IMG/VR virus record: IMGVR_UViG_3300025138_000013
Reading direction: 5' to 3' (one strand)
Source of the DNA: a virus
Length of the DNA: 64,000 bases
A model generated the notes under the pieces. That model worked only from the letters and a program-made list of their open reading frames with translations, searched no databases and had not been told where the DNA came from. Made by a program: the position numbers and the translations under genes. This document shows, one piece after another, positions 4,615 through 59,097 of the stretch; position 1 is the first letter of the stretch, and each line of letters opens with the position of its first letter.

Positions 4615-4630
4615 GGCGATAAATACCTGT

Positions 4631-21496: not shown

Positions 21497-21793
21497 ATGT
21501 TCGGTAAAAAAGTTCAAACAATTGATTACAAATACAATGAGCAAGAACTCCTCAAGGAGTTCAAGCTCTATGTTGACAAAACATACGGTGAACATTATTC
21601 CAAAGATAAGTTTCAGGCAACTGAGTTTATCATGGATGGTGGTCACGGTGAAGGATTCTGTATCGGGAACGTGATGAAATATGCACAACGATATGGCAAG
21701 AAGGGTGGTTATAATCGTGCTGACCTTCTCAAGGTAATTCATTATGGATTCCTTGCTTTGTACAATCACGATAATTATAAGGAGACTAACTAG
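21497..21793 (+). CDS. DUF3310-like protein (T7 gp1.7-related)
   Basis: HYS...GFCIGNVMKYAQRYGKK...DLLKVIHY. Confidence 0.75.
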   Translation: MFGKKVQTIDYKYNEQELLKEFKLYVDKTYGEHYSKDKFQATEFIMDGGHGEGFCIGNVMKYAQRYGKKGGYNRADLLKVIHYGFLALYNHDNYKETN

Positions 21794-21795
21794 TG

Positions 21796-22461
21796 ATGAA
21801 AATTAGTAATGATACAAAAGATGTTCTAAAGAACTTCTCAACAATCAACTCGGGCATTCGAGTCAAAACAGGCAACAAACTGGAAACTATTTCCAATATG
21901 AAAAACATTCTTGCAGTAGCAACTGTGGCTGAGGATTTCCCTCAAGACTTCAGTATCTACAACCTGCCAGAATTCTTAGGTGCGACATCTTTAATGGATG
22001 ACCCCGACTTCCAATTCAATGATTCTTCATTGTCTGTGGCAGATAACAATTCTTCTCTTGCGTATTTCTATGCAGCGGAAGGTATGGTGACTGCACCCGA
22101 CAAGATGATAACTATGCCAGATGCAGAGATTGAATTCAAAGTAACGTCAACACTATTGACTGACCTTAAGAAAGCTGCAGCTGTCCTAGGTGTTAACGAT
22201 TTGATTCTCAAATCAGATGGAACTAACGTAACATTAGTTGTTACAGATAAGAAGAGTCCTACTTCAAATACATTCTCAAGAATTGTAGGTGAAGGTGATG
22301 GAACTACTTATGACATGAATTTCAAGATGGAGAATCTTAAAATTCTAGACGGTAACTATGATGTTCAAGTATCATCAAAAGGTATATCTCATTTCAATAA
22401 TGCAGATGTAGACTTAGAGTACTTTATTGCACTGGAGCCTGACAGCAAATACAATGCCTAA
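21796..22461 (+). CDS. gp45: Sliding clamp
   Basis: LKNFSTINSGI, FSIYNLPEFLG, YFIALEPDS. Confidence 0.95.
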   Translation: MKISNDTKDVLKNFSTINSGIRVKTGNKLETISNMKNILAVATVAEDFPQDFSIYNLPEFLGATSLMDDPDFQFNDSSLSVADNNSSLAYFYAAEGMVTAPDKMITMPDAEIEFKVTSTLLTDLKKAAAVLGVNDLILKSDGTNVTLVVTDKKSPTSNTFSRIVGEGDGTTYDMNFKMENLKILDGNYDVQVSSKGISHFNNADVDLEYFIALEPDSKYNA

Positions 22462-26203: not shown

Positions 26204-27112
26204 ATGAAAAATATACTAACAGTAGGACTACTAGTTCTACTCATGAGTGGATGTGCTAGTATTCCTAGCATGACAGACTCATGTGAATCTCTTGTTATGT
26301 CAAGAGTCGGCGAGTGTATTGAGAAGGCAGAAGTAGTAAATATACCTACTTATAGAGAGTTGGCTGATTTACCACCAGCGGATACGATGCCAGTTGTTGC
26401 AGTATATGCTTTCCAAGATAAGACAGGACAACGTAAGAGTAAAGATGGAATTGCATCTTTCTCTACTGCAGTAACCCAAGGTGCAGAATCATTTTTGATT
26501 GATGCCTTGAAGACTGCTGGAAAAGGTAAATGGTTTAGAGTAGTAGAAAGAACAAGTCTCGATGCACTTGTAAGAGAACGTCAGATTATTCGTTCTACTA
26601 GAGAAGACTTTGCAAACCAAGAAGGTAATGAAGATGCCCCAACAGGTATTCAACCTTTGCTGTTTGCTGGAATCCTACTGGAAGGTGGGATTATTGGTTA
26701 TGATACTAACATTGAAAGCGGTGGACGAGGCGCAAGATACTTAGGTATTGGTTCAAGTGTGTCCTACCGTAGAGATGTTATCACTGTATCGTTGAGAGGA
26801 ATATCAACTTTAACTGGTGAGATTTTACTGAATGTACAGACTCAGAAGACGATTCTAAGTACAGGCGGTGGTTATGATGTATTCCGCTTCGTTGATATGG
26901 ATACGAAGTTAGTGGAAATGGAAGATGGTAAAGCAGAGAATGAAGGAGTTACAAGAGCAACTCGTTCTGCAATTGAACTTGCCGTCTTGGAACTAATATA
27001 CCAAGGACACGATAGAAGTTTTTGGGTAATTAAAGATGGACATCGTCACCCACATGGAAGTCATGGTAGGAACGAACTACATCAAATAGAGGAAAAACAG
27101 GATGAAGAATAA
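26204..27112 (+). CDS. csgG: Curli secretion channel lipoprotein CsgG
   Basis: Lipobox LMSGC, VAVYAFQDKTGQRK, STAVTQG, WFRVVER..LDALVRERQIIR, GGIIGYDTN, GGRGARYLGIG. Confidence 0.95.
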   Translation: MKNILTVGLLVLLMSGCASIPSMTDSCESLVMSRVGECIEKAEVVNIPTYRELADLPPADTMPVVAVYAFQDKTGQRKSKDGIASFSTAVTQGAESFLIDALKTAGKGKWFRVVERTSLDALVRERQIIRSTREDFANQEGNEDAPTGIQPLLFAGILLEGGIIGYDTNIESGGRGARYLGIGSSVSYRRDVITVSLRGISTLTGEILLNVQTQKTILSTGGGYDVFRFVDMDTKLVEMEDGKAENEGVTRATRSAIELAVLELIYQGHDRSFWVIKDGHRHPHGSHGRNELHQIEEKQDEE

Positions 27113-27830
27113 ATTATTACTCATTATGTTAGCATTAGGAATGTCGGGGACAGCATTTGCTGGAGCTGATGATAACGAAGTATGGTTACAGCAAAGTGGT
27201 ACTGCATTGACATTGAACATAACTCAAAAGGGTTATGGAAACAAAGTTGGTGGTAATGACTTTAGTGGAACATCAATAGATATGCTATTGACTGGTGCTA
27301 CTAACAGTTTAACATTAGTACAATTCGGTGACAGTAACAAACTATACGGGCCTTTCATTGCAGATTCTTCAACAGTAAATTTAACTTTTACTGGTGACTC
27401 TAACTCAATGGATTGGAACGTTGGTTATCAAGGTTCAGCAGATAACTTAAATATGTTAGGAGCTGTTACAGGTTCATCTAACACATTTGATATTGATGTT
27501 GGATACGACCAGTCTGCAGAATACTTAAACTGGGACTTAGTAGTAGGTGGTTCAAGTAATGTATTCACTACTAAAATAGATAGTGACAATGCTGTTTGGA
27601 ATTGGACTGTTACAGGTTCAACAAATGACATCAATACTATACAGGCAGACGCAACAGATAATAAAATTACTGCAGTCTTAACTGGTTCAGGCAATGATAT
27701 AGATATCATTCAGAAATCGGGTTCAGATACAGGTTGTCCAAGTGGTCAATCATGTAGTGGTATTATTGATGTAAGCTTCGTGACTTCTAATGCAAATATT
27801 GACATCGTTCAAAAAGACGATAACGATTAA
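27102..27830 (+). CDS. Curlin-like beta-repeat secreted protein (CsgA/B-like)
   Basis: Signal peptide (..AFA), repeated hydrophobic-x-hydrophobic-x-Q/T-x-G-x-x-N units, C-terminal Cys pair. Confidence 0.75.
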   Translation: MKNKLLLIMLALGMSGTAFAGADDNEVWLQQSGTALTLNITQKGYGNKVGGNDFSGTSIDMLLTGATNSLTLVQFGDSNKLYGPFIADSSTVNLTFTGDSNSMDWNVGYQGSADNLNMLGAVTGSSNTFDIDVGYDQSAEYLNWDLVVGGSSNVFTTKIDSDNAVWNWTVTGSTNDINTIQADATDNKITAVLTGSGNDIDIIQKSGSDTGCPSGQSCSGIIDVSFVTSNANIDIVQKDDND

Positions 27831-29090: not shown

Positions 29091-29894
29091 ATGAAAAGAA
29101 TTTTATCATTATTAATAATGCTTCCCTTGTTAGTCATTGCAGATGATGACAACAAGGTTGATGTTAACACTACTGGGAGTCAGTCTAATGATTCCCTAGT
29201 GTTTAATCTAACACAAATAGGTTATAACAACGATACCGTCTTTACAATCGGTGGTTCCAATAACACATTTCTAATTAAACAAGAAGGAAACAACAACGAG
29301 ATTTCCTTCGTAGATTACTTTGGTTCGGGAGAAACTTGGGGTGGAGACCTCGATGGTAATAACAATGCATTACACTTCGAACAAAATTGTACTCGTGGTT
29401 CCAGTTGTGGTAAATCTGATATAGGATTTCACATTCAAGGAGATGGTAACTCAGTTCGATGGGGTCAAGGAAAGGTTCTATCAAACGCTTCAGATGAGAC
29501 ATTTTCACTCGATTCGGATGAGGGTGGTAATCATAAACTAAACCTAGACATTCACGGTAATAATAATTCAGTCGCAGGGTTTCAAAGAAATGGTGCTCAA
29601 AATCAATACTCAGGTCACACTGCAACCTTATACATCTATGCAAATGACAATTCACTTTGGGTGAAACAAGAGAATGATGGTGCAAAGACTTTAAACTACA
29701 TTAGTAGAACAGATGATAATACAGGACATATAGTTCAAATGGGTAGTGGGAGTCACACTTCAACCATAAATCTCACTGGTACATACCCATCAACTTTAAA
29801 TTTATTGCAAAACTCAAGTACAAATCAATCATATACACTCACACAAAACTGCGTTACAGTAGGTGGATGTAGTGTTACAATAACTCAAGAGTAA
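29091..29894 (+). CDS. Second curlin-like beta-repeat secreted protein
   Basis: Signal peptide; TQIGYNN, KQEGNNN, DGNNN...EQ, HGNNNSV..FQ repeats; ends CVTVGGCSVTITQE. Confidence 0.72.
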   Translation: MKRILSLLIMLPLLVIADDDNKVDVNTTGSQSNDSLVFNLTQIGYNNDTVFTIGGSNNTFLIKQEGNNNEISFVDYFGSGETWGGDLDGNNNALHFEQNCTRGSSCGKSDIGFHIQGDGNSVRWGQGKVLSNASDETFSLDSDEGGNHKLNLDIHGNNNSVAGFQRNGAQNQYSGHTATLYIYANDNSLWVKQENDGAKTLNYISRTDDNTGHIVQMGSGSHTSTINLTGTYPSTLNLLQNSSTNQSYTLTQNCVTVGGCSVTITQE

Positions 29895-32149: not shown

Positions 32150-32587
32150 ATGACAAGTAAACAGCTCGGAGACTTCGATGTCTTCAATTTCGGGAAATCA
32201 TTCCCATTCGCAATCGGGTTCGACAGAACTCTTCAACTATTAGAACGTGCCAATCAGTCACCGACTAATACAAACTATCCACCTTACAATATTGTAAAAC
32301 ACGATGCAGAGAACTTCAGTATCGAACTTGCATTAGCTGGATTTGATAAAAAGGACATCACAATCTCAAAAGAGAAAGAGGTTCTTAATATCGAAGGTAA
32401 ACAAAAGGAAGGGGAAAACCTTGAGTACGTCCATAGAGGACTTGCAGCTCGTTCATTCAAAAGAACATTCACACTTGCAGACGACATTGTCGTTAAAGGT
32501 GCAGACATGAAGAATGGTATTTTGAGTGTATCTTTGGAAAGGATTATACCCGAAGAAGATAAACCCCAAAAAATCAAAATTTCTTAA
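32150..32587 (+). CDS. hsp20: Small heat-shock protein Hsp20 (IbpA-like)
   Basis: NYPPYNI, ELALAGF, HRGLAARSFKRTF, NGILSV. Confidence 0.96.
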   Translation: MTSKQLGDFDVFNFGKSFPFAIGFDRTLQLLERANQSPTNTNYPPYNIVKHDAENFSIELALAGFDKKDITISKEKEVLNIEGKQKEGENLEYVHRGLAARSFKRTFTLADDIVVKGADMKNGILSVSLERIIPEEDKPQKIKIS

Positions 32588-32658: not shown

Positions 32659-33186
32659 ATGACAGAAGAAAGAAGAATGGGATTAGAAATTATCGAAGGG
32701 GAAACTAAAGTACCCGAAGTAGTCCTACCTCAGAGAATTGATGGTGAATTCGTAACACTAGACACACAACAACAGTTTGCTGGTAAAAGAGTAATTGTAT
32801 TTGGTTTGCCTGGCGCATTCACTCCAACATGTTCAACACAACAATTGCCTAGCTTTGATGAGAGATTTGAAGAGTTTAGAGAAAAGGGAATTGATGAGAT
32901 TTATTGTGTATCAGTGAATGATACATTCGTAATGAACTCATGGTTCGAATCATTAGGTATCAAAAATGTTTACCCTCTTCCCGATGGTAACGGTGAGTTT
33001 ACTCACTTGATTGGTGCAGAATGTTCTAAATCAAATCTTGGTTTTGGATATAGGTCTTGGAGATATGCAGTTGTAATCAACGATGGTGTAATTGAAAAAG
33101 CATTCATTGAAGATGGCTATCAAGACAATGCAGAGTCCGACCCTTATGAGACTTCAAGCCCAGAAAATATATTGAAAAATCTTTAG
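32659..33186 (+). CDS. Peroxiredoxin (Prx5 type)
   Basis: LPGAFTPTCS, CVSVNDTFVM, DGNGEFT, RSWRYA. Confidence 0.95.
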   Translation: MTEERRMGLEIIEGETKVPEVVLPQRIDGEFVTLDTQQQFAGKRVIVFGLPGAFTPTCSTQQLPSFDERFEEFREKGIDEIYCVSVNDTFVMNSWFESLGIKNVYPLPDGNGEFTHLIGAECSKSNLGFGYRSWRYAVVINDGVIEKAFIEDGYQDNAESDPYETSSPENILKNL

Positions 33187-33230
33187 AAATCGCCTTGACA
33201 GAGTTGTGCTAAATATAGTATAATGGAGTC

Positions 33231-34508
33231 ATGATGAGTGATAATAAATATTTTCAATACAATCTAGAAGACCTTCACCGTAACAGTGAAAGTAAACAGT
33301 TTAATTACATTACTTTCTTTGCAGGCGGTGGTGGTTCTTCATGTGGTTACAAACTAGCAGGTGGTGACGTTCGTTACATGAACGAGTTCCAACAGTTACA
33401 TGTTGACACCTACCTAGAAAACTTCCCTAACACAGTACATGAATGTAGAGACATCAAAGAAGTCACTGCAGAAGGTATCATGGAGCTTAGTGGACTTAAG
33501 AAATACGAATTAGATATCATGGATGGGTCACCACCTTGTCCACCATTTTCTATGGCAGGTTCCAAGAAAGAAGGATGGAACCAAGAGAAGATGGCATATG
33601 GTATGAAGCAACAGAACATTGAAGACCTAACATGGGAAATGATTAGGATTGCCGAAGGGTTAATGCCTAAAGTTATAATATGTGAGAACGTGAAAGGTCT
33701 TTCAATGGACTATGCAAGAGACCATCTAAACAGGATGGTAAACGATTTCGAAGCACTAGGATACTCAGTGACTTGGAAAATCATGAAGGGACATCAGCAT
33801 GGTGTACCTCAGAAGAGAGAAAGAGTATTCATGGTTGGTGTACGTGACGATGTACTTGAAGGTATTGGAATGCCTTGGATGTGCATGTCATCTGTATTCC
33901 CCGACCCAGTAAAAGAATTTGCATCTATAGAAGATGCAATCCATGATTTAGAAACCGATGAAGATAACATGAAAGATGCAGCTTATCTAGAGACTGCCAT
34001 GGACGATTCTTCAAAAGGTCATTGGGTAAATGGATTTGATGTTCATCCCGATGAAAAGTTTGAAGGTTGTGTTCCATGTAAAGGTCTTACACCAGTATTA
34101 AAAGAAAGAGACAACCAAGCATATACCTCTATTGGAGACCATATTGTAAAACCATGGTTCCAAGAGAACATTGCACTAGGACATATCAAACCCGAAGATG
34201 AGAAACATTCTTACTATATGTCAAGAATAGTTCCTAAACATCTACCAGCTCATTCATTGACTGAACAAGGTTGTCAACCTAAGTTTATGGGTGGTAATCA
34301 TTTCCACCACAGTGGTAAAAGAATTTACACACCAAAAGAAATGGTAAGATTAATGACTCTACCAAACGACTATAAAATGACTGGTGATTACAATGATAAA
34401 GGTGCAAGAATAGGATTGATGGTAGCACCATTGTGTATGTACTACTTAGTTGAAAACATTAAAGGACAAATATTAGAACCATGGAATTCACTGCAACAAA
34501 AGACTTAG
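33231..34508 (+). CDS. DNA (cytosine-5) methyltransferase
   Basis: FAGGGG (I), GSPPC (IV), ENV (VI), QKRER (VIII). Confidence 0.95.
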   Translation: MMSDNKYFQYNLEDLHRNSESKQFNYITFFAGGGGSSCGYKLAGGDVRYMNEFQQLHVDTYLENFPNTVHECRDIKEVTAEGIMELSGLKKYELDIMDGSPPCPPFSMAGSKKEGWNQEKMAYGMKQQNIEDLTWEMIRIAEGLMPKVIICENVKGLSMDYARDHLNRMVNDFEALGYSVTWKIMKGHQHGVPQKRERVFMVGVRDDVLEGIGMPWMCMSSVFPDPVKEFASIEDAIHDLETDEDNMKDAAYLETAMDDSSKGHWVNGFDVHPDEKFEGCVPCKGLTPVLKERDNQAYTSIGDHIVKPWFQENIALGHIKPEDEKHSYYMSRIVPKHLPAHSLTEQGCQPKFMGGNHFHHSGKRIYTPKEMVRLMTLPNDYKMTGDYNDKGARIGLMVAPLCMYYLVENIKGQILEPWNSLQQKT

Positions 34509-35482
34509 GATTTAAAGAAACATTCAAAGAATGGAACGGTAAGTATCTTACTGAAGATTCTTATGATACTGTTATATCATCCATTGGTGTCGAGGATGAC
34601 ATCATTAAAATCTATAAACCTCATGGTACACTCATGGGTGAAACCTTACTTGCATGTATTGTAAAGAGAGCATATACAGGTACGACTTATCAAACAGTTA
34701 AAGACACTTTGTTCTCTATCGATGATACATCTACAATGAGAGCAAATGCAGCCGGGCCTATCGACCATGAAGAGATGAAGGCAAAAGGATTAATCGAAGG
34801 AAAGGACTATGTCCTAAGAACTCCAAACAGTTACTACCCACTTAAGAAGAACGGTGAGTTCAATCGTATTGCAGAAGCAAACGAGATTCATTCAGTTCTA
34901 ATCGGGTATAAACGTGGCAGATTCACAGGAATGATTAAGGCAAGTGGATGGATGGATAAGAAATCCAACAAAGAAAAGTTTGAAACCTTATCACAGATTG
35001 CAAACGTCAATGAACAAGCATTGAAGACTGCAGTTCCCGAAGTATACAACTTACAAAAAACTTTTGCAGATGAATGTATAGATGAGAAGTATCACATTGG
35101 TGGTTCACCGATGACAGCTTTATCTGCAAACAAATATTCAACTGGTGGGACTGCAAAGATGTCTGCACATTTGGATGGAAAAGATTTAGAGTTCGGAATG
35201 ACAACTATGTGTGTCTTCCGTATTGGAGAATTTGGGGGTGCATACTTATGTTTCCCTAGATATGGTATTGCTATTGAAGCAGATGATGGAGACGTACTGA
35301 TTGCAGATTCAAATGAATTGCACGGTGTATCACCTATCACTGGTGAAGGAGTAAGGTTATCATGTGTTGCATATTGTGATGAACATGTTGCAACTAAAGG
35401 GAGAGCTGGAAAGACTGAGAATCCTATCGGCCCACATGCTGGAAAGTATGAGGAGAAAGGTTCACTCGACAGCTTTTTCTAG
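34481..35482 (+). CDS. TET/JBP-family 2OG-Fe(II) dioxygenase
   Basis: AHLDGKD, GGAYLCFPRYGIA...GDVLIAD..ELHGVSP...RLSCVAY; overlaps the C5-MTase gene. Confidence 0.85.
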   Translation: MEFTATKDLGFKETFKEWNGKYLTEDSYDTVISSIGVEDDIIKIYKPHGTLMGETLLACIVKRAYTGTTYQTVKDTLFSIDDTSTMRANAAGPIDHEEMKAKGLIEGKDYVLRTPNSYYPLKKNGEFNRIAEANEIHSVLIGYKRGRFTGMIKASGWMDKKSNKEKFETLSQIANVNEQALKTAVPEVYNLQKTFADECIDEKYHIGGSPMTALSANKYSTGGTAKMSAHLDGKDLEFGMTTMCVFRIGEFGGAYLCFPRYGIAIEADDGDVLIADSNELHGVSPITGEGVRLSCVAYCDEHVATKGRAGKTENPIGPHAGKYEEKGSLDSFF

Positions 35483-35567
35483 ACCTAAATAATAATGTAT
35501 CAACTGGAACGTTTCCTTTTGGACATCAACGTTATAACATATCCCTCGTAGGGATAAGGAAAAAAAT

Positions 35568-36704
35568 ATGACAACACAAAATCACCTGTTCGCAGGTTTA
35601 AAAAAGAGCTACGATATAGAACTCACCCGAGAACTATGTCCACCCAAAGAAACTTATCAAACTTGTAAATTCAAGAAAAGACTTGTAGTACACAAGGATA
35701 AGATTCACATCATTGACCCTATTACAGGGGAACCATTGCAACCGAGAGAAGAAATCAATCTCACTCAAAATGTTATTGAGATTAAAACTTCATTCAAGTA
35801 CAGAGGTTGGTTACATTCAGAAGAACCACTATTTGTACAAGTCGCTGCTGATGGAAACTTCATTCTAAGAAGTGGATTCAACAGATACAAAGCTGCAACG
35901 GAAAGTGGTTGGGAATATCTATTAGTAGATGTGTATGAAGATGCACCAGTCCAAAAGGACAACATTGCATTTAAGTATGTTTGTAACAATACTAACCTAC
36001 CATCTAAACCTAATAAAGATATTGACTTCATTAGAGGTGTAGTAGAAGCGATTGATGCAAATGCAATCAATCAAGAAGTCGAAGCAGAGATAATCTCATT
36101 CTTAAAACAAATCACATCAACAGATGATGGTATGCGTTTAAAGACAGATGAAGAGATTGTCAACTATGTCGATGTAACGGAAGTAAATGACGATGGTTCA
36201 GAGAGTACTATTCAAGAACTATCATCTTCATGTTTACTATATAAAGTCTATAGACAAAGAGGAAAGAACAGAAACATTCTACCATTAGATGGTAAGGGTG
36301 CAAACCAAATTCTAAACTCTCTTAAAAAAGGATGGGCTGGAGCAAGAAACAAAGATGTTACTGAGTTAGGTTATTGTTTTGAGAAGAAGACTACATGTCA
36401 CAGGATATTGTGGGATGGTATGAAACTTTATAGTAAATATCAAACACCTATCATGTTATATGGTTATGTTGAGAATCCCTCATCAATGACTTTAAAGTCT
36501 GATAGAATAGAAACACTTGCAAGATACGAGTGGTTCATAGAAGAATGTGTAAGAAGATTTACGGATTCTCTTGACTATCACAAGATGGGACTTAACTTCA
36601 TGGAACTTGAATGGAAGTTCAGAGAAATCTTTCAGTGGGGTGGATTTATACCTCAAGATAAAACACCACATTGTGATGAAAGTGGAAGGATAGTAGAACT
36701 ATGA
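35568..36704 (+). CDS. Hypothetical protein with ParB/Srx-like N-terminal domain
   Basis: PLFV...FILRSGFNRYKAA resembles the ParB GxxR motif; late box CTAAATA at 35485. Confidence 0.55.
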   Translation: MTTQNHLFAGLKKSYDIELTRELCPPKETYQTCKFKKRLVVHKDKIHIIDPITGEPLQPREEINLTQNVIEIKTSFKYRGWLHSEEPLFVQVAADGNFILRSGFNRYKAATESGWEYLLVDVYEDAPVQKDNIAFKYVCNNTNLPSKPNKDIDFIRGVVEAIDANAINQEVEAEIISFLKQITSTDDGMRLKTDEEIVNYVDVTEVNDDGSESTIQELSSSCLLYKVYRQRGKNRNILPLDGKGANQILNSLKKGWAGARNKDVTELGYCFEKKTTCHRILWDGMKLYSKYQTPIMLYGYVENPSSMTLKSDRIETLARYEWFIEECVRRFTDSLDYHKMGLNFMELEWKFREIFQWGGFIPQDKTPHCDESGRIVEL

Positions 36705-37237
36705 TTATAATGGTTGGTGGAGTTCCATGTTCGGGAAAGTCAACTCTCATGAGAAGACTTATCTCTAGGTTAGATGAACCCAATCTAATTGAACCGATGA
36801 AACTATTTAAGTGCCAAGAACATGGTGACATATTAGTAGTCGGTCAATATCCCGAGGGAGAGACATTCGGCGGAACTGATAAGCTCTCTCACGGTTCTAT
36901 CCCACAGTTTAGAGAGTTCATTGAAGCAATGAACATTGCATACAAACATGTTCTAATAGAAGGTGATAGATACTTTAGAGGAGTAGACATAGAATGGTTG
37001 ATGCAAAACCATGAAGCATTAGTTTACGTTCTAACAGTAGACATATCCGAAGAACACAATCGTCACACAGAACGTGGAGACACACAATCAGAAGTATGGC
37101 TGAAGGGAAGACGAACACAGATAAATAACATACTAACAAACATGAATCTTTTAGGACAACTAAATATTCGTGATAATGATTCAATAGAATCATCTATGAA
37201 AATAGAAGAGGAGATATATGCCAAAATTATTCAATAA
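36701..37237 (+). CDS. P-loop nucleotide kinase-like protein
   Basis: GGVPCSGKST, FGGTDKLS, LIEGDR. Confidence 0.75.
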   Translation: MIIMVGGVPCSGKSTLMRRLISRLDEPNLIEPMKLFKCQEHGDILVVGQYPEGETFGGTDKLSHGSIPQFREFIEAMNIAYKHVLIEGDRYFRGVDIEWLMQNHEALVYVLTVDISEEHNRHTERGDTQSEVWLKGRRTQINNILTNMNLLGQLNIRDNDSIESSMKIEEEIYAKIIQ

Positions 37238-37532
37238 TAAAGTCTACATGGTAGTAGAGAACCCATCTGAAGAAGATGCAGCTATTGAATTGACTGGTGG
37301 TGAATGGGATGGACTAGTATACCAATATGGTAAGCTACAATTCGAAGAAGGTAAACCAAATATTAACTTCCAAAGAACAATAAGAAGGTTCCCTCACGGG
37401 CAACAGAAGACAGATATTGGACTTGAGGAACTCCTAAATAATAGTGAATTAAACGACCTCATGGGTGAAATACTCATGGAATTAGTCGATGAACAAATGA
37501 AAAGAGAACAAGATGAAATCAAGACAAGCTAA
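37218..37532 (+). CDS. Hypothetical protein
   Basis: AIELTGGEWDGLVYQYGK...LMGEILMELV. Confidence 0.7.
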   Translation: MPKLFNNKVYMVVENPSEEDAAIELTGGEWDGLVYQYGKLQFEEGKPNINFQRTIRRFPHGQQKTDIGLEELLNNSELNDLMGEILMELVDEQMKREQDEIKTS

Positions 37533-38632: not shown

Positions 38633-41125
38633 ATGGATTTTTATACTAATGTGTGTCGTACTCGCGACAAGATACTCGTAAAAGGTTACCAAGGTAAAAA
38701 ACAGGTTCAGATGTCTGTGGATTACCGTCCCAACCATTACGTCCCAACAAAGAAACCCTCTGCATTCAAGTCATTGGATGGAAAGAACCTTGAGGTTGTC
38801 AATCTCAGTTCAATGGGCGGTGCAAGAAAGTTCCGTGAGAAGTTTGCTGGAACAGCAGGGATGGAAATCCATGGATATGATAGATACATCTATACATATA
38901 TTGCAGACAAGTTTCAAGGTGATATCAAGTATGACCCAAAGGTCATCAAGATTGCAACACTCGACATTGAGTGTGAATGTGAAGATGGGTTCCCCGAACC
39001 CATGCAAGCTTTGGAAAAGGTCAATGCAATCACAATCAAACCGTTCAGATTCATGGCTCACACATTCGGGATTGGGCCGTGGGATGACAAACCAGCAAAC
39101 GTAACATATCATGAAGCACAGGATGAGAAAGACCTACTTGAACAATTCATCAAGTACTGGAGAAAAGAGAAGTTCGATATCATCACAGGCTGGAATGTTA
39201 ATACTTTTGATATTACTTATTTGTGTAATCGTGTCGACAGAGTCTTTGGTGCTGACTCACATAGAAAATTCTCACCATGGAACATGTGTGATGTCAGAGA
39301 ATTTAAAACCAATTGGGGCTCTCAACAACAGGTTTTTAATCTGTATGGAATCAATGTAATTGATTACCTAGAACTATACAAAAAACATACATTCGTAAAT
39401 CAAGAGTCCTACAGACTAGACCATATTGCTATGGTTGAACTGGGTAAGGCTAAGATTGATTACTCAGAAGAAGGTTCACTCCATCATTTATACAGACTAA
39501 ACTATTCCAAGTTCCTTGCATACAATGTAAAGGATGTTACCTTGGTAGAAGACCTAGAAGAGAAACTAGGATTGATGGAATTGATTCTTGCCATGTCTTA
39601 CAATGCAAAGTGTAACTACAATGATACATTTGGTATGGTCAAGTATTGGGAGACAATCATCTATAACTTCCTTAAGGAACAGAAGATTGCAACACCACCA
39701 CAGAGACTATCACAAACAAAAGGTGATAGAATTCAAGGTGCATACGTTAAAGAACCATTGGTGGGTAAACATGAATGGGTCGTTTCATTCGACTTGAACT
39801 CACTGTATCCACACATCATCATGCAGTACAATATCTCACCCGAGAAGATGCAGAGAGGATTGACAGACACATCCGTAGAGAAACTATTCAACAAAGAAAC
39901 AGTAGTTGATGGTGCATTCGGTATCACACCAAACGGTGCTAGATTCTCTAACGACAGACAAGGTTTCCTTCCCGAACTTATGCAGAAGTTCTATGACGAA
40001 CGTAAGATGTGGAAGGGTAAAATGATTGAGTATCAGAAGGAACTACAAACTTGTACAGACAGGAAACGTAAGAATGAACTCAACACATTAATCAAACGTT
40101 CTTACAACAACCAACAGGTTAGAAAGATTGCACTTAACTCAGCTTATGGTGCCTTGGCAAATCAATACTTTGCATTCTTTGACCCACAACTTGCAGAGGC
40201 AATCACATTGTCGGGTCAGTTGATTATCAAACATGCAGAGAAAACAATCAATGATTGGTTGAATACCACACTCAAGACAGATGAAGATTATGTTGTTGCA
40301 ATGGATACTGATTCTGTTTACATAACACTAGACAAACTGATACAGAAGGTAATGCCTAATGAAACTGATAAAACCAAAATCACAAACTTTATCGACTCAA
40401 TTGCAAAATCCCACATGGAAGAAGTTCTTGAAGAGGGCTTCAAAGAACTTGCAGAGTACACCAATGCCTACGAACAGAAGATGGAAATGGGGAGAGAGGT
40501 CATCGCAGACCGTGGGATTTGGACTGCAAAGAAAAGATACATCCTCAACGTCATCGACAACGAAGGAGTCAGACTAGCCGAACCCAAACTCAAGATGATG
40601 GGTATTGAGACTGCAAAGTCCAGTACACCACAATGGGTCAGAGGTAAACTTACAGATGCATTCAAGATTGTGATGCAAGGAACTGAAGAAGAACTATGGG
40701 ATTTTGTTGAAGGTGCTCGTATGGACTTCCGTAGGTTACCACCCGAAGAAATGTCTTCACCAAGAGGTTGTAATAATCTCGGACAGTATGCAGACCCAAC
40801 AATGATTTACACCAAGGGTACACCCATACACGTACGCGGTGCCTTACTTTACAATCATCATCTAAAACAAAAGAACATTCACAAACGTTATGAGTTGATT
40901 AAGAGTGGAGAGAAACTACACTTTACATATCTCACAACACCTAACCCAATCAACGAGAACGTCATATCTTTTCTAAACGTGTTACCAAGAGAAATGGATT
41001 TACACAAGTATTTGAATTATGACATGCAATTTGACAAGTCATTCATAGAACCACTGAAGGTGGTTATAGAAAAGATTGGCTGGAATGTCGAACCAGTTGC
41101 TTCGCTTGATTCGTTTTTCGGATAA
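38633..41125 (+). CDS. gp43: Family B DNA polymerase
   Basis: DIE exonuclease, SFDLNSLYPHII, KIALNSAYG, DTDS, C-terminal clamp peptide SLDSFFG. Confidence 0.98.
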   Translation: MDFYTNVCRTRDKILVKGYQGKKQVQMSVDYRPNHYVPTKKPSAFKSLDGKNLEVVNLSSMGGARKFREKFAGTAGMEIHGYDRYIYTYIADKFQGDIKYDPKVIKIATLDIECECEDGFPEPMQALEKVNAITIKPFRFMAHTFGIGPWDDKPANVTYHEAQDEKDLLEQFIKYWRKEKFDIITGWNVNTFDITYLCNRVDRVFGADSHRKFSPWNMCDVREFKTNWGSQQQVFNLYGINVIDYLELYKKHTFVNQESYRLDHIAMVELGKAKIDYSEEGSLHHLYRLNYSKFLAYNVKDVTLVEDLEEKLGLMELILAMSYNAKCNYNDTFGMVKYWETIIYNFLKEQKIATPPQRLSQTKGDRIQGAYVKEPLVGKHEWVVSFDLNSLYPHIIMQYNISPEKMQRGLTDTSVEKLFNKETVVDGAFGITPNGARFSNDRQGFLPELMQKFYDERKMWKGKMIEYQKELQTCTDRKRKNELNTLIKRSYNNQQVRKIALNSAYGALANQYFAFFDPQLAEAITLSGQLIIKHAEKTINDWLNTTLKTDEDYVVAMDTDSVYITLDKLIQKVMPNETDKTKITNFIDSIAKSHMEEVLEEGFKELAEYTNAYEQKMEMGREVIADRGIWTAKKRYILNVIDNEGVRLAEPKLKMMGIETAKSSTPQWVRGKLTDAFKIVMQGTEEELWDFVEGARMDFRRLPPEEMSSPRGCNNLGQYADPTMIYTKGTPIHVRGALLYNHHLKQKNIHKRYELIKSGEKLHFTYLTTPNPINENVISFLNVLPREMDLHKYLNYDMQFDKSFIEPLKVVIEKIGWNVEPVASLDSFFG

Positions 41126-43393: not shown

Positions 43394-44738
43394 AGAGTTT
43401 ACAAGGAAGGTAATACCATTCCTTAAGGAAGAGTATTTCTCCGAGTCGGACGAGAAGACCGTGTTCAACGAAGTAGGTTCCTATTTCGATAAGTACACTA
43501 AACCACCTACAGTGGAAGCACTTCTCATAAATCTAGATAACAACTCGTCACTCAATGACAGTGTTTTATCTAGTGCAAAAACTATTGTAGATAGTATTAG
43601 TAAGGACAAAGAAGACACACCAATCGATTGGTTGGTGGAAGAGACTGAAAAGTGGTGTCAAGATAGAGCAATCTATATTGCAGTCATGGATAGTATCGAA
43701 GTCATCGACAAAAAGTCCCAACGCTCGACTGGGGAAATACCCGACCTTTTAAAAGAAGCTTTATCTGTATCGTTTGACACTAATATCGGTCACGATTTCA
43801 TTGAGAACTCAGACGATAGATTTGAATTCTATCACACTGAAGAAGAGAAACTTCCATTCGATTTAGAATACTTCAACAAAGTCACCAAAGGTGGATTACC
43901 AAACAAAACTTTAAACATATGTCTTGCTGGTACTGGTGTTGGTAAGTCATTATTCATGTGTCATATGGCATCTGCAAACTTAATGATGAACAAGAATGTG
44001 TTATACATTACATTAGAAATGTCAGAGGAAAGGATTGCAGAAAGAATCGATGCAAACACATTGAATATTCCTATGCAAGATTTACCCGACTTATCTAAGA
44101 AAATGTTTGATAAGAAGATTGACAAGATTAAAGAAAAGACTAAAGGTAAACTTATCGTAAAGGAATATCCAACTGCATCAGCTCATGTAGGTCACTTCAG
44201 ACATCTACTTCAAGAGTTGAATATCAAGAAAGATTTTAAACCCGATATGATTTATATCGACTATCTAAATATATGTTCAAGTGCAAGAGTCAAGCCAGGA
44301 GCTGGTGCAAACTCATACACATTAGTGAAGAGTATTGCAGAAGAACTTAGAGGACTTGCAGTTGAGTTTGATGTACCAATCATGAGTGCAACACAAACAA
44401 CACGTAGTGGTTATGGTTCTACAGATGTGGAACTAACAGATACTTCAGAATCATTTGGATTACCAGCGACTGCAGACTTTATGTTTGCACTGATTACATC
44501 CGATGAACTGGAAGAACTAGACCAAATGGTAGTAAAACAATTAAAGAATAGATACAATGACCCAACCGTATTTAAAAGGTTTGTCATAGGTGTCGACAGA
44601 AGTAGAATGAAACTCTATGACTGTGAACAAGAAGCACAGGAAGAACTCATTGACTCAGCAGTCAACGATGATGTTCCAGTGTTTGATAGAGGAAGAAATG
44701 ATGGACAGAAACGAGATTTCTCAGAATTCAAGGTCTGA
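43341..44738 (+). CDS. gp41: Replicative helicase
   Basis: [38 protein letters not shown]. Confidence 0.97.
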
Positions 44739-45348
44739 CGATTTGTTATGGGGACATCCTATAACTGCAATACAAATAAATTCAGACCCAATTGATGAAT
44801 GGTTTAAAACCATAGACCTTGATGAGTTATGTAAAGAAGAATTTACATTTAGTAAATGTAAAACATCACAAGGAGTAGAAGACAATAACCATGTAGATTA
44901 CAATGTTGTAACTGATATTATTTTTGATAAGTTTACAACTTATCTAGAATCTCTAGGCCCAAAGGAAATGTTAAAAAGTGTATTAGAAGTTCCTTGGATT
45001 AACATATATGAAGAACATGGATTCCAAGATTCACATGACCATCAAGGCAGTAAGTTTTCTGATTTTGCATGGTGTTATGTACATCAAGCTGGTGACTCAC
45101 ATATTGTATTTAAGAACAAACATGCTTCTAATAGTGAAGTCTGTTTACAAGAATTTCTACAAGCTTACGACACCTCAGTAAATTATGTTCCATCCATAAA
45201 AGGTAAAGGAACCGTATACTTTTTCCCAGCACATATCTATCATGCAGTATCACCAAACTTAAGTACTACTCCTAGGATAACAATATCGGGAAACATTAGA
45301 ATAAAGGGAACTGGTGTCTTGAGAATTGGAGAAACTAAATTAACATAA
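44698..45348 (+). CDS. 2OG-Fe(II) oxygenase
   Basis: WINIY...HDH, FFPAHIYHAVSPN, RITISGN. Confidence 0.82.
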   Translation: MMDRNEISQNSRSDDLLWGHPITAIQINSDPIDEWFKTIDLDELCKEEFTFSKCKTSQGVEDNNHVDYNVVTDIIFDKFTTYLESLGPKEMLKSVLEVPWINIYEEHGFQDSHDHQGSKFSDFAWCYVHQAGDSHIVFKNKHASNSEVCLQEFLQAYDTSVNYVPSIKGKGTVYFFPAHIYHAVSPNLSTTPRITISGNIRIKGTGVLRIGETKLT

Positions 45349-46025: not shown

Positions 46026-47228
46026 ATGAGTGCAAAAAACTTACATTTAGAACATCTAGAAGACGAAATCATCAATCAAGGAATTGATGGTGGTCGTGGT
46101 GCAATTAACTTTCTTCAAGGTTTAAGAGACATGATGAAGGGCAATTCTTCTAGTTCTGTAAACATGACTGTTAAATGGGATGGAGCTCCTGCAATCTTTT
46201 GTGGAAGACATCCCGAAACAAATCAATTTTTTGTTGCAAAGAAATCATTATTCAATAAGACACCATTGTTCTATACTTCTGAACATGATATAAAAAATGC
46301 AGAAGAACTAAGTGGACAACTCAAAGAGAAATTCTTAACATCATTCAAATATCTATCTAAACTATCTTGGTCAAATGTCATGCAAGGTGACTTGATGTAT
46401 ACAAACGATAAGAAAACACAAAAGATAGATGGTAAATCATTCATAACATTTCAACCAAACACAATCTTATATGCAGTTGACGAAACCTCAAACCTTGGTA
46501 AAGTTATAGCTGGTTCTAAGATGGGTATTGTATTCCATACCACATACGAGGGTAGTACTATAGAAGGATTGGGTGCATCATTTGGTGCAAACATATCTAA
46601 GTTAGGTTCTAGTAGTGATGTATGGATAGATGATGCATCATACAAAGATGTCAGTGGTAATAGTTCAATGACTTCAAAGGAGACACTCAAACTAACACAA
46701 GAGTTGACTGCAACAGGTAAAGCATTCCACGGTATCACTAAGAAAGACCTACAGAAGTTCCAAGACATACAGATGACTATCACAAAGAAAGGTGCTGGTG
46801 CATCCTATAAGACTTACTGCAACTCATTAATCAGACAAGGTAAGTTCAATCCATCATTCGATGGTTACATTAAACACTTTGAAGGATATTGGAAAGATAA
46901 AGTTGTTGGTGGTGTTAAAACAGAGAAACACAAATTAATTAAAACAGAGATTGGTGAAGACCTTTCAAGAGAACTTAGAGGTCTTAAAAAGTTTATTACT
47001 AATCTCACTAGTTTCATGGGTCACTTGGTAGTTGCAAAACAGATTATTATTGTTGCCCTAAATAGAGTAAAGAGTATCGGAACATTCAAAAAGACTGCAA
47101 ACGGATTCGAAGCAGTTAACCCCGAAGGTTACGTTGCAATCGACAGAACAGGTAAAGCTGTTAAACTTGTAGACCGTATGGAATTTGCATTTAACAACTT
47201 CACTGCAATCAAAAATTGGGATAAGTAA
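46026..47228 (+). CDS. Conserved phage protein with ATP-dependent ligase-like motifs
   Basis: TVKWDG (motif I KxDG), QGDL, PEGYV (IV), VKLVDR (V). Confidence 0.6.
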   Translation: MSAKNLHLEHLEDEIINQGIDGGRGAINFLQGLRDMMKGNSSSSVNMTVKWDGAPAIFCGRHPETNQFFVAKKSLFNKTPLFYTSEHDIKNAEELSGQLKEKFLTSFKYLSKLSWSNVMQGDLMYTNDKKTQKIDGKSFITFQPNTILYAVDETSNLGKVIAGSKMGIVFHTTYEGSTIEGLGASFGANISKLGSSSDVWIDDASYKDVSGNSSMTSKETLKLTQELTATGKAFHGITKKDLQKFQDIQMTITKKGAGASYKTYCNSLIRQGKFNPSFDGYIKHFEGYWKDKVVGGVKTEKHKLIKTEIGEDLSRELRGLKKFITNLTSFMGHLVVAKQIIIVALNRVKSIGTFKKTANGFEAVNPEGYVAIDRTGKAVKLVDRMEFAFNNFTAIKNWDK

Positions 47229-48511
47229 TGAAAGAATTCGGTAAATTTTTAACAGAAGCAAAAGACAAGGGTGTTGTATTTACATTCGGTAGATTCAACC
47301 CACCCACAACAGGTCATGCAAAATTAGTAGACAAGCTTAAAAAAGAAACCAGCGGTGGTTATCAACCAATGCTTTTCTCATCTCATTCAAACGACAAAAA
47401 GAAAAATCCATTAGACCATAAACTCAAAGTAAAATATCTTAAGAAATTCTTTGGTAAGATAGTTGCAGATGTACAAGCACGTACTGTATTTGAGATTGCA
47501 AATGAATTACATAAACAAAATTTCAAACGTGTTAAGATGGTAGTTGGTTCAGACAGAATTAAAGAATTTGAAATGTTACTGAAGAAGTACAACGGAGTTA
47601 AAGCAAGGCACGGCTACTATAAATTTGATGATATACAAATTGTATCAGCAGGGGAGAGAGACCCCGATGCAGATGACCTAAGTGGAATGAGTGCATCTAA
47701 ATTAAGAGCTCTTGCAGAAGTCGGTGATTTTAAAGCATTTGCACAAGGTGTTCCGACTAGGAATAAAAAAGATATTGAACAACTATACAAAGACATCCGT
47801 AGAGGGATGGGAATTGTTGAGTCATCTTTACCCGACTATATGATTGAAGATTTAATTACTGAAGGAGTCTATGACCAAGGAACATTCAAAGCAGTGTTTT
47901 TCTCGGGTGGCCCAGGCAGTGGTAAGTCAACAGTGGTACAAAAGTTATCACTAAAGGCATTAGGACTGAAGATGGTAAACACCGATGCAGCTTTTGAAAA
48001 TGGATTAAAAAAGGCAGGAATGTCACTTGATTTACGTGGTGCAGACTTTGATAAAGTTGACCCTATTCGTGCAAAAGCAAAGAGTATCACTACAAAGAAT
48101 ATGAACAACTATATTGGTGGTAGACTTGGAATGATATTTGATACTACTAGTGCAAACATTGCTAAAGTACAGAAATATAAGAAGTCATTAGATGCATTAG
48201 GATATGAATCTAAAATGATATACGTAAGTGCATCACTAGACAATGCACAAAAGAGAAATGCATCAAGACCTAGAAAATTACCAGCTGAGATAGTAAAATC
48301 AGATTGGGAAAAATCTAGAAAGAATGCAGCTGCACTGAAAAAAATCTTTAGTAGAGATTATATAGAAGTCACAAACGATGAAGGATTAAAGGAACTAGAT
48401 AAAGCTGCAACTAAGATGTACACAAAATTACTTGGTTGGACTGGTGCATTCCCAAGTAATAAGAAAGCACTTGCATGGAAACAAGCAGAACTGGATGCTA
48501 AAAAACGATAA
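47228..48511 (+). CDS. Cytidylyltransferase-family nucleotidyltransferase fused to a P-loop kinase
   Basis: FGRFNPPTTGH, VGSDR, MSASKLR; second domain GGPGSGKS, IFDTT, KRNASRPR. Confidence 0.85.
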   Translation: MKEFGKFLTEAKDKGVVFTFGRFNPPTTGHAKLVDKLKKETSGGYQPMLFSSHSNDKKKNPLDHKLKVKYLKKFFGKIVADVQARTVFEIANELHKQNFKRVKMVVGSDRIKEFEMLLKKYNGVKARHGYYKFDDIQIVSAGERDPDADDLSGMSASKLRALAEVGDFKAFAQGVPTRNKKDIEQLYKDIRRGMGIVESSLPDYMIEDLITEGVYDQGTFKAVFFSGGPGSGKSTVVQKLSLKALGLKMVNTDAAFENGLKKAGMSLDLRGADFDKVDPIRAKAKSITTKNMNNYIGGRLGMIFDTTSANIAKVQKYKKSLDALGYESKMIYVSASLDNAQKRNASRPRKLPAEIVKSDWEKSRKNAAALKKIFSRDYIEVTNDEGLKELDKAATKMYTKLLGWTGAFPSNKKALAWKQAELDAKKR

Positions 48512-48519: not shown

Positions 48520-49470
48520 ATGGACATATTAGAATCTATACTTAACGAAAGAAAGGTCAAACAAGACAAAGACATTGAAGACCGTAAAGGTACTCAACCA
48601 TCCAAGTATTACGCAAAGGATGCTGATGGTGACGAAATGTCTAAGTCTACCAAACAAAAACGTGCAGCTCATTTTGCACAGAAAAAAGACGGCCCTGCAC
48701 CTGGCGACCATGATGCAGATACTAAACCTTCCAAACATACTAAAAAGTACAAAGATATGTACGAAGATGCTGGTAAGTCACTTGCAAAGAAAGCTGATAA
48801 ATCGGGGATATCAAAAGGTATTCTACAACAGGTTTATAACAGAGGTGTGGCTGCATGGAAGACTGGTCATAGGCCAGGCACTACTCCAGAGCAGTGGGGA
48901 CATGCAAGAGTAAATTCATTCATCACCAAAGGTAAAGGAACATGGGGTGGTGCAGACAAAGACCTTGCAAAGAAAGCTGGTGCATCTGAATCAGTCCAAG
49001 AAGGTAAATTAGTTACTAGTGCTCAAGACATCATTGCTCTAATTTTGAAAAAAGTTGGTCAAAAAATGGAAGATGAGTTTACAAAGAATCCCGAAAAAGG
49101 TATTGGCCTTATCAATACAATCGGTGCAATGGTTAAACATAAAGTTACCAATAAGAAACAAGAGAAAGGTAAACTATTTCTTAAATTCGGTGACAATCTA
49201 GAGGGTGATTTATTAGAAGATGCAGCCGTAGATGCAGCGGAGTTAAAAGCAAAACAAGCAGGTGAACTCGAACGTCTTAAACTAAGACAAGAGGACGAAC
49301 TCGAAGCATTGACTAAAAGACACGAAAGAGAAACAGAAAGAGTCGATGGTCAGAAAGAGAAAGAGACTGCAGACAAACAAATTCAATCAAAACGTGATGC
49401 AGACAGAAAGAAAGCAGAAACGAAATCAGAAAGTTATAAAACTATTTTAAAGGTAAGGGGAATAAAATGA
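48520..49470 (+). CDS. Probable internal head protein
   Basis: KSGISKGILQQVYNRGVAAW...WGHARVNSF module; several L/V-x-E sites. Confidence 0.65.
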   Translation: MDILESILNERKVKQDKDIEDRKGTQPSKYYAKDADGDEMSKSTKQKRAAHFAQKKDGPAPGDHDADTKPSKHTKKYKDMYEDAGKSLAKKADKSGISKGILQQVYNRGVAAWKTGHRPGTTPEQWGHARVNSFITKGKGTWGGADKDLAKKAGASESVQEGKLVTSAQDIIALILKKVGQKMEDEFTKNPEKGIGLINTIGAMVKHKVTNKKQEKGKLFLKFGDNLEGDLLEDAAVDAAELKAKQAGELERLKLRQEDELEALTKRHERETERVDGQKEKETADKQIQSKRDADRKKAETKSESYKTILKVRGIK

Positions 49471-51067: not shown

Positions 51068-51613
51068 ATGAGTTATAAATCAGAAAATTGGAAGGACAAA
51101 CTGGATGAAGTCCGTAACTACGTGGAACCACGTAAAGATGGCACGTTAGAAAAGACTGCAGAAGACATCATTTCAGACGAAATTGAGGCCTTAGTAGCTC
51201 ATCTTGAGGAAGATTTAAGTACTGAAGACACTCTTCCCGAAGTAGAAGATATAGAAGAATTTATTGTTGAAGAGGGAATGGGAGATAAAATCTCTAAACT
51301 TTTCAAAACTAAGGACAAAAAAGAAGTCAATGGTATTGCAAATCTTATGAACATGACAGATGTCAAAGTTCTACAAGCTATGCAGAAACAAAATCCTAAA
51401 GGATTCAAAAGAATGACTGCAAAGATGGGTGAACTTCCAGCAATGGAAGAGGTTCAAGAAGAAGTCATAGAAGAGAACACATCTCTCGAAAAGACAGTTG
51501 AAAAATTAACAGAAAAAAACATGTTAGGTAGACTTGCAAAGTCTTTACGTCTTGATGAAGAAGGTAAAGAAAAAATGTTTGACTACTTCAAAAAAGGAGA
51601 ATTAGAACAATGA
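51068..51613 (+). CDS. Probable internal head protein
   Basis: TAAATA-N5-ATG; acidic, many I/L/V-x-E sites. Confidence 0.6.
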   Translation: MSYKSENWKDKLDEVRNYVEPRKDGTLEKTAEDIISDEIEALVAHLEEDLSTEDTLPEVEDIEEFIVEEGMGDKISKLFKTKDKKEVNGIANLMNMTDVKVLQAMQKQNPKGFKRMTAKMGELPAMEEVQEEVIEENTSLEKTVEKLTEKNMLGRLAKSLRLDEEGKEKMFDYFKKGELEQ

Positions 51614-52794: not shown

Positions 52795-52795
52795 A

Positions 52796-54202: not shown

Positions 54203-54205
54203 GTA

Positions 54206-54751: not shown

Positions 54752-54771
54752 ATCTATAACGGAGAAATAAA

Positions 54772-55344: not shown

Positions 55345-55351
55345 TTAAGTA

Positions 55352-55579: not shown

Positions 55580-55591
55580 GAATAAAAAATT

Positions 55592-55999: not shown

Positions 56000-56055
56000 A
56001 ACCTTCCTTAGAGGTCTACTAAATACCATGGTAGACCACTATTTTAAATTATATT

Positions 56056-56503: not shown

Positions 56504-56528
56504 CTGCTCAAAAGACCTAAATAGATAT

Positions 56529-57888: not shown

Positions 57889-57891
57889 ATT

Positions 57892-59067: not shown

Positions 59068-59097
59068 ATACAATTATAAATATTTCTAGGAGAAATC

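Follow-up and report, generated by a model that had tools for sequence, protein, structure and literature searches.

A candidate post-replicative cytosine hypermodification module, with a ParB-fold protein and a P-loop kinase, in a T4-like marine myophage

The subject of this work is a run of four genes in IMG/VR virus record IMGVR_UViG_3300025138_000013, of which a stretch of 64,000 nucleotides (nt) was analysed (hereafter, the window). The source is a T4-like marine myophage. The GC content of the window is 37%, and almost every gene lies on the + strand. In order, the four genes encode a DNA cytosine-C5 methyltransferase (C5-MT), a dioxygenase of the TET/JBP type (hereafter, TET), a ParB-like protein and a P-loop kinase (Table 1). 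A first-pass annotation, made from the DNA letters, had placed these as four co-directional + strand open reading frames (ORFs) spanning positions 33231-37237. These coordinates are exact. The four names it gave to the products are also upheld, by matches to Pfam families and by a model of the ParB-like fold.

Table 1. Genes and features at the locus and nearby (aa, amino acids; AF2, AlphaFold2).
Feature	Position	Strand	Basis
DNA cytosine-C5 methyltransferase, 425 aa	33231..34508	+	PF00145 E 1.2e-47; TIGR00675 E 1.3e-42
TET/JBP-type 5-methylpyrimidine dioxygenase, 333 aa	34481..35482	+	PF12851 E 4.2e-13
ParB/Srx-fold protein, 378 aa	35568..36704	+	AF2 model and structural matches
P-loop kinase, 178 aa	36701..37237	+	PF18751 Ploopntkinase3 E 4.8e-7
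Sigma-70-type promoter match	33195..33224	+	TTGACA, 18 nt, TATAAT; 12/12 match
Hsp20 small heat-shock protein	32150..32587	+	PF00011 E 2.4e-18; flank gene of published clade I/A context
Redoxin/AhpC-type peroxiredoxin	32659..33186	+	PF08534 E 3.9e-28; phrog_2281 E 1e-65; clade I/A flank
gp45 sliding clamp	21793..22461	+	PF09116 gp45-slide_C E 7e-13

According to the ORF map, the genes for C5-MT and TET overlap by 28 nt, as had been noted at the outset. Conservation of the TET N-terminus bears this out. Residue D8, encoded within the overlap, is invariant in seven homologues and, hence, the overlapping TET start is real. The TET stop and ParB-like start are separated by 85 nt. The same map has the ParB-like stop and kinase start overlapping by 4 nt, an arrangement indicating that the kinase gene is translationally coupled to the ParB-like gene. 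Upstream, the promoter match ends 6 nt 5' of the C5-MT ATG, with GGAG in between. Use of this promoter is predicted. If it fires, the C5-MT mRNA would be near-leaderless, with the Shine-Dalgarno sequence upstream of the transcript start. The ORF at 37218-37532 was considered as a further part of the module and ruled out, since its homologues are elsewhere in other phages (near UvsX or helicase).

The PF00145 match covers profile positions 1-323 of 324 in the C5-MT. The translation contains FAGGGG, PPCPPFS (with the PC catalytic dipeptide), ENV and QKRER, and so has the catalytic Cys and S-adenosylmethionine (SAM) motifs of C5-MTs. For TET, the match to PF12851 (Tet_JBP) scores 49.3 bits against a cut-off of 34.9. 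Residues H230-x-D232, H281 and R292 are invariant among the 7 homologues aligned, and provide the HxD...H iron ligand and the Arg that binds 2-oxoglutarate (2OG). Note that searches of Protein Data Bank (PDB) sequences, with TET and with the kinase, gave chance-level matches only.

Gene pairs of this type have been studied before. Burke et al. 2021 (PNAS, PMC8256090) surveyed 32 contigs from metaviromes that carry both a C5-MT and a TET gene, and found heat-shock protein and redoxin genes beside the pairs of clade I/A. The window has the clade I/A gene order: Hsp20, redoxin, C5-MT, TET and, later, a P-loop kinase in the slot that is filled by a glycosyltransferase (GT) in other members. C5-MT and TET are parallel and <=5 genes apart, Hsp20 and redoxin are upstream, and the kinase is downstream; the likeness is one of layout. 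In E. coli, clade I/A and II/B pairs formed both 5-methylcytosine (5mC) and 5-hydroxymethylcytosine (5hmC). The target of the clade I enzymes (43 and 88) is GpC[C/T/G], not GpCA, and that of clade IIa is GpC[C/T]. The MT88/TET88 pair, from contig 88 where a P-loop kinase is present, gave 5mC and 5hmC at GpC[C/T/G], and 5hmC was the sole product of TET43. ParB, lysozyme, clamp-loader and DNA polymerase genes also occur in these contigs. However, genes downstream of TET were treated as hypothetical, and the kinase and ParB were not assayed there (PMC8256090). The first-pass annotation had proposed a route from C to 5mC to 5hmC. This is supported, both steps having been demonstrated for the same contig class, though it had overlooked that the architecture was already published in 2021.

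Sequence composition also bears on the methylase. We compared counts of GCN trinucleotides with a first-order Markov expectation, pooling both strands, in three genomes (Table 2). One is Methylophilales phage Melnitz (MZ577097); no other cultured phage matched the locus at the DNA level, and the Melnitz match has 68.7% identity over 39% of the query. In the window, GCA exceeds expectation, whereas GCC, GCG and GCT fall short of it. In Melnitz, depletion is confined to GCC and GCT. HTVC008M, which has no C5-MT, has neither pattern. The remaining NCN trinucleotides of the window are at 0.87-1.27 of expectation, and the observed/expected ratio for GpC is 0.73 in the window, 0.91 in Melnitz and 0.96 in HTVC008M. 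Considering in-frame codons of the window, 66% of those for Ala end in A, compared with 45-51% for Thr, Pro and Ser. T precedes GC in 57% of in-frame cases and precedes GT and GA in 32-34%. The depletion patterns of the window and Melnitz match the specificities reported for methylases of clade I and clade IIa, respectively. As a comparison of three genomes, this suggests long-term activity of the methylase, acting via 5mC deamination or selection.

Table 2. Observed/expected ratios for GCN trinucleotides.
Genome	GCA	GCC	GCG	GCT
Window	1.48	0.67	0.56	0.78
Melnitz	1.33	0.80	1.05	0.69
HTVC008M (without C5-MT)	1.10	1.00	1.39	0.78

The C-terminus of TET resembles that of a replication protein. TET ends SLDSFF (35462-35479) and the gp43 DNA polymerase of the window ends SLDSFFG (41102-41125). 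We compared C-termini from the window and related loci (L001, L014, L015, L020, L021, L024 and L038), with the polymerase end of the same locus for five of the TETs. All eight TETs examined end (S/N)L(D/E)xF(F/L/M), resembling the polymerase tails of these phages. In T4 and RB69, the C-terminal peptide of gp43 docks the polymerase onto the gp45 clamp. By means of its polymerase-like peptide, TET may be tethered likewise, with gp45 the presumed docking partner. Such a tail suggests how a 'post-replicative' pathway could couple to the replication fork. The tail is absent from the C-termini of the C5-MT, ParB-like protein and kinase. It is also found on an Asn-synthase-like protein (L024) and an N6/N4-methyltransferase-like protein (L038), both neighbours of distant ParB-like genes.

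The third product deserves the name 'ParB-like' that it was first given, but it is divergent, being recognised by fold and below the Pfam ParB_N cut-off. The whole 378-aa protein has no match in Pfam, PHROGs, NCBIfam or PDB sequences; against the last, single-sequence and profile searches both gave nothing usable. When isolated, the N-terminal fragment matches Pfam ParB_N with E 0.0037 and 17.7 bits, under the cut-off of 26.3. The same family is detected at E<0.01 in 3 of 67 family members. An exhaustive profile search for the ParB-like family gave 96 clusters at 50% identity, mostly of 330-420 aa. The AF2 model, from an alignment of 67 of these, has a predicted local distance difference test score (pLDDT) of 91 and a predicted template modelling score of 0.83. 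An earlier model, from 16 close homologues, had pLDDT 65, and its N-terminal part matched ParB/Srx proteins only. Three parts can be distinguished: a nucleotide-binding domain (~28-135), a ParB-type helical domain (~140-232) and an alpha/beta C-terminal domain (241-378). Using VIA-align, the best match is pNOB8 ParB-N (5k5d_B; Z 10.5 across 156 residues, within 32-231), with PadC (Z 9.5), KorB (8.9), sulfiredoxin (Srx, 8.2) and the serine kinase SerK (7.1) further down. Foldseek places Myxococcus ParB (MxParB) and Caulobacter ParB (CcParB) at the top (E 4e-6 to 1e-5). The top 29 Foldseek matches (E<=1e-3) are all in the ParB/Srx superfamily, including ParB, Noc, KorB, PadC and Srx. For the C-terminal domain there are weak structural matches only (Z<=5.4).

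Residues R60, G103, R106 and N140 vary little or not at all across the 67 family members, which have a mean identity of 20%. Placed by eye, from motif order, on R54, G92, R95 and N127 of MxParB, these would be the phosphate-binding residues of ParB CTPases. Hence, R60 would be the QPR arginine, G103 and R106 part of GxxR, and N140 the third-motif Asn. The catalytic Glu of GERR is absent: the protein reads S-G-F-N-R, with F104 at this position, and the family consensus is GFNR or GFxR. Because Phe replaces the catalytic Glu, while the putative phosphate-binding residues are kept, the protein probably binds nucleotide and has no ParB-type hydrolysis. A role as a sulfiredoxin, serving the neighbouring peroxiredoxin, was ruled out. 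The R-S-G-F-N-R sequence is without the catalytic Cys of F-G/S-G-C-H-R, and linkage to redoxin is not kept in other lineages.

The kinase scores 29.9 bits against PF18751 (Ploopntkinase3), for which the cut-off is 27. This family is reportedly one defined from phage DNA-modification loci. Walker A (G7..G12-K13-S14), GTD58-60, EGDR87-90 and the lid arginines R121, R125 and R137 are invariant in 10 homologues. Thus, Walker A, catalytic acidic residues and lid arginines, the core of kinases like the 5-hydroxymethyldeoxyuridine (5-hmdU) DNA kinases (5-HMUDK), are all present. In the published contigs, P-loop kinases occur in 49, 76 and 88, and phosphorylation of 5hmC, followed by unknown steps, was proposed. 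The P-loop kinase and GT alternate at one slot (PMC8256090) and should, therefore, have equivalent downstream roles.

The first-pass annotation had named separation of the ParB-like and kinase genes in relatives as a reason to reject its proposal. We compared 22 IMG/VR loci with ParB-like homologues of 40-99% identity. The kinase gene is directly downstream of the ParB-like gene in 14 of the 14 loci having downstream DNA, mostly with the same 4-nt overlap. No gene conserved 3' of the kinase was found among the loci compared. In six of nine distinct lineages, C5-MT and TET are directly upstream of the ParB-like gene. The position of the four-gene block varies: after redoxin in the window, after DNA polymerase in L015 and L020, and after the clamp loader region in L021. 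Because the block is at different positions in different genomes, we conclude that the four genes move as a unit.

In Melnitz, genes 5-8 encode a C5-MT (53% aa identity), a TET (52%), a 427-aa ORF and a kinase (56-59%), with DNA polymerase ahead; this is the clade II/B layout. The Melnitz paper annotated a 'type II DNA methylase' alone, and TET and kinase were not recognised there. The 427-aa gene was considered as a diverged ParB-like homologue and rejected, BLASTP and two hhalign runs having found nothing. As a separate observation, no Pfam family matches this gene 7 product (L001 6269-7552). Its N-terminus looks GIY-YIG-like by eye, and the residues 'QVRE ... GKNHTxxAG' recall ParB/DndB motifs.

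The ParB-like family extends beyond such loci. A distant subgroup, for which 23 loci were compared, lies among the replication genes of T4-like phages. Four arrangements were seen. The first is Hsp20, a 269-aa ORF, C5-MT, SAM-dependent methyltransferase (SAM-MT), ParB-like gene, Asn-synthase-like PP-loop ATPase and DNA polymerase. In the second, the ParB-like gene is followed by C5-MT and SAM-MT. The third is DNA polymerase, N6/N4-methyltransferase-like, GNAT-like, ParB-like, MazG and UvsX. In the fourth, the ParB-like gene is followed by the kinase. A few distant ParB-like genes adjoin gp32 or primase/ribonucleotide reductase (RNR) genes. The common theme of the neighbours is DNA-modifying enzymes, not TET specifically. 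Since these partners are varied, an accessory role for the ParB-like protein fits better than a fixed catalytic step. Separately, the first arrangement (L024, L047, L048, L051 and L052) is a candidate for a different cytosine-modification block. In the L024-type block, the 269-aa ORF is without a family, the SAM-MT matches Methyltransf_12, and the PP-loop ATPase is Asn-synthase/QueC-like and has the clamp-type tail. An NAD epimerase is found further on and TET was not recognised.

That the window has no GT, as first reported, holds for the 40 ORFs scanned (10 around the locus and the 30 largest others, the latter at E<=1e-4). It had been suggested that finishing enzymes may lie outside the window. 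This gains no support from G001, an IMG/VR relative of 146 kb that is 80% complete and has ~95% protein identity across the locus, or from the complete Melnitz genome. Both contain the Tet_JBP positive control, and both lack Glycos_transf_1, Glycos_transf_2 and aGPT-Pplase3, the only finishing-enzyme models searched. Note that the aGPT-Pplase3 model had no match in G001, Melnitz or any control genome, and that aGPT-Pplase1 and 2 were not searched. Salvage of modified nucleotides, also suggested, is unsupported, since the base is modified within the polymer and the locus encodes nothing that acts on free nucleotides. The original interpretation is, hence, supported in part: the gene identities, the 5hmC logic, the lack of GT and the linkage stand, and salvage and external finishing enzymes find no support. 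The search for finishing enzymes is further limited by eight ORFs of the window, 242-796 aa long, that belong to no family: 14388-15731, 17514-19904, 27102-27830, 29091-29894, 51610-52794, 52709-54202, 57892-59067 and 59798-60850.

We propose that the locus is a post-replicative cytosine hypermodification module, a reading for which we judge the chances to be evenly balanced. Four steps are envisaged. First, the C5-MT would methylate GpC sites on phage DNA, probably GC[C/T/G]. Second, the clamp-tethered TET would oxidise 5mC to 5hmC. Through homology of context, these two steps can be regarded as well supported by the published experiments with the same contig class. Third, by analogy with 5-hmdU DNA kinases, the P-loop kinase would phosphorylate the new hydroxymethyl group on DNA. 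Fourth, the ParB-fold protein, with nucleotide bound, would help the kinase, and perhaps TET too, as an accessory for DNA loading or activation. We infer this last step from the fold, the conserved binding residues, the varied partners of the family and a precedent described below; clamp tethering is likewise inferred. Because no dedicated group-transferase was found, the end product would be 5-phosphomethylcytosine itself, or a derivative made via an unrecognised activity.

Two known systems are useful for comparison. Thymidine hypermodification via 5-hmdU DNA kinases occurs in phages M6, ViI, SP10, PhiW-14 and PaMx11 (Lee et al. 2018; PMC11472151). The locus shares with these pathways a P-loop kinase beside an enzyme making a 5-hydroxymethylpyrimidine, and the hydroxyl would be activated as a phosphate ester in both. 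In contrast, the substrate here would be post-replicative 5hmC derived from 5mC, rather than 5-hydroxymethyluracil (5hmU) incorporated at replication. Furthermore, no aGPT-Pplase3 amino-acid:DNA transferase was found, and there is no BLAST-level similarity between the kinases.

The second system provides the precedent for ParB. O'Toole et al. 2026 (PNAS, PMC13229309) describe a subclass of phage thymine dioxygenase that needs a neighbouring ParB homologue on double-stranded DNA. These ParB-dependent enzymes are 'consistently linked' with P-loop kinases, at loci without an adjacent C5-MT, and C5-MT co-occurs with 6% of the pathways of 5-methylpyrimidine dioxygenases (5mYOX). Their ParBs have a nucleotide-binding domain, a linker and a dimerisation domain, and mostly retain the residues for CTP binding and hydrolysis (PMC13229309). 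Like 5mYOX176/ParB176, the locus has a ParB-fold gene by a phage 5mYOX, closest structurally to MxParB and CcParB, and a P-loop kinase. Unlike the thymine loci, it has a C5-MT gene, which overlaps that for TET. The ParB-like protein also differs: it is Pfam ParB_N-negative, has GFNR for GERR, keeps the helical domain and ends in an alpha/beta domain of 140 aa. In addition, its gene tracks the kinase, not TET. The locus thus belongs to a published class, and joins the cytosine route with a ParB-fold partner.

Several observations weigh against the four-step module. The ParB-like/kinase pair occurs with C5-MT and without TET in L013, and with neither in L019 and in L017/L018, where it is beside a RimK-type ATP-grasp gene. 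The first-pass annotation had overlooked these three lineages. Since the pair occurs without TET, it may not need TET-made 5hmC. In Melnitz, the ParB-like slot is filled by a gene without homology to the window protein in the BLASTP and hhalign comparisons. The kinase has no tblastn similarity (E<=1e-3, among 50,697 phage records, in which M6, ViI and SP10 were assumed to be present) to phages using a 5-hmdU DNA kinase. Its only matches are in Melnitz, Cr30 and actinophages, and the homologues from Caulobacter phage Cr30 and from the actinophages, the latter annotated 'adenylate kinase', have unrelated gene surroundings. The site-depletion signal comes from three genomes, and the roles of the kinase and ParB-like protein are deduced from sequence, fold and analogy. 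The main unexplained fact is the pair without TET, and this keeps alive two rival explanations, in which the pair is an independent unit or the ParB-fold protein is an enzyme.

In the first of these, 5hmC, or a mix of 5mC and 5hmC, is final. The ParB-like/kinase pair is then a separate unit, sharing an insertion hotspot near DNA polymerase, with a role in nucleotide metabolism, control of replication or packaging, or counter-defence. The three lineages above are what this predicts, as are kinase homologues in phages without a nearby TET and ParB-like family members adjoining gp32, primase/RNR and UvsX. That TET43 made only 5hmC (PMC8256090) is similarly consistent. Nevertheless, we consider such a separate unit unlikely. 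The block of four genes moves whole among the genomic positions listed above, the kinase passes the cut-off for a family said to come from DNA-modification loci, and P-loop kinase alternates with GT at the same published slot (PMC8256090).

Alternatively, the ParB-fold protein could itself be the finishing enzyme. With an Srx/SerK-like activity, or by means of its C-terminal domain, it would add a second phosphate or other group to kinase-activated 5hmC, standing in for the missing amino-acid:DNA transferase or GT. Consistent with this, true phosphotransferases of the ParB/Srx fold (Srx, SerK and SbnI) are among the structural matches (Z 6.4-8.2), and R313, Q363, E377 and a GFLPQ motif of the C-terminal domain are strictly conserved in a family of such low mean identity. 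The tight translational coupling to the kinase would also fit, as would the pairing of a distant homologue with an Asn-synthase-like PP-loop ATPase, another group-activating enzyme. However, the best structural matches are DNA-clamp ParBs, including the helical domain (5k5d with VIA-align; MxParB and CcParB with Foldseek), and the C-terminal domain has no significant enzyme match. Moreover, family members are found beside N6/N4-type and C5 methylases without an activating enzyme, which better suits a general accessory. On balance, a finishing role for the ParB-fold protein seems improbable.

Most improbable of all is that TET is a ParB-dependent thymine dioxygenase (O'Toole clade C1 type), with the kinase phosphorylating 5hmU and the methylase an independent anti-restriction enzyme: the kinase linkage of such dioxygenases and the rarity of C5-MT in 5mYOX pathways (PMC13229309) would agree, but the published thymine clusters have no neighbouring C5-MT, whereas here C5-MT and TET overlap and occur together in six lineages, Hsp20 and redoxin are the neighbours of clade A, in which 5mC is the base oxidised, and no amino-acid:DNA transferase or GATase is present.

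Returning to the cytosine module, it is possible, though doubtful, that its product is a cytosine adduct new to viruses, and that the ParB-fold family is a general partner in base modification. The adduct would be 5-phosphomethylcytosine, terminal and negatively charged, or carry a substituent from the ParB-fold C-terminal domain. If so, the family would be a general nucleotide-gated partner of clamp-tethered DNA-modifying enzymes in T4-like marine phages, serving TET, the kinase, a PP-loop amidotransferase-like enzyme, and N6/N4 and C5 methylases. The ParB-fold partner at this locus adds, for cytosine, a second case of ParB proteins enlisted in base modification. T4-like phages that infect SAR11, OM43 and marine bacteria related to them rank with the most abundant ocean viruses, and phage DNA chemistry affects restriction, sequencing bias and defence evasion. 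The product of the C5-MT, TET and kinase branch has been unassigned since 2021; the locus, its metagenomic relatives and cultured Melnitz make the question directly testable. New here are the ParB-like/kinase adjacency in 14 loci, the wider methylase-linked family, the TET clamp peptide and the depletion of predicted target sites. Compared with Burke et al. 2021, what is added is how the 378-aa protein folds and that it pairs obligately with the kinase, together with the clamp tail and the depletion.

Among the other genes recognised in the window are portal, prohead protease, gp23, UvsW, gp46/47-like genes, the gp45 clamp and the gp44 clamp loader. A curli/CHASE2-cyclase block, DNA polymerase gp43, UvsX, gp41 helicase and RNR were also seen. 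A predicted ORF of 357 aa at 4349-5422 has a SAM methyltransferase domain (Methyltransf_23, E 8e-7) and overlaps the end of gp23 by ~200 nt. Further 2OG-Fe(II) oxygenases, not of the TET/JBP type (2OG-FeII_Oxy_3, Oxy_5), are encoded at 6925-7665 and 44617-45348 of the window, and at 1452-2429 and 4448-4969 of L017. The region 46026-48511 encodes a DUF6267 protein (E 7e-100), then a cytidylyltransferase-like domain fused to an AAA_33/Zeta-toxin-type kinase, and a DUF5824 protein is encoded at 48520-49470. Finally, a PAP2-family phosphatase gene at 57100-57888 (E 1e-10) sits amid family-less ORFs of 350-497 aa (51610-60850), which are the largest unannotated genes of the window.

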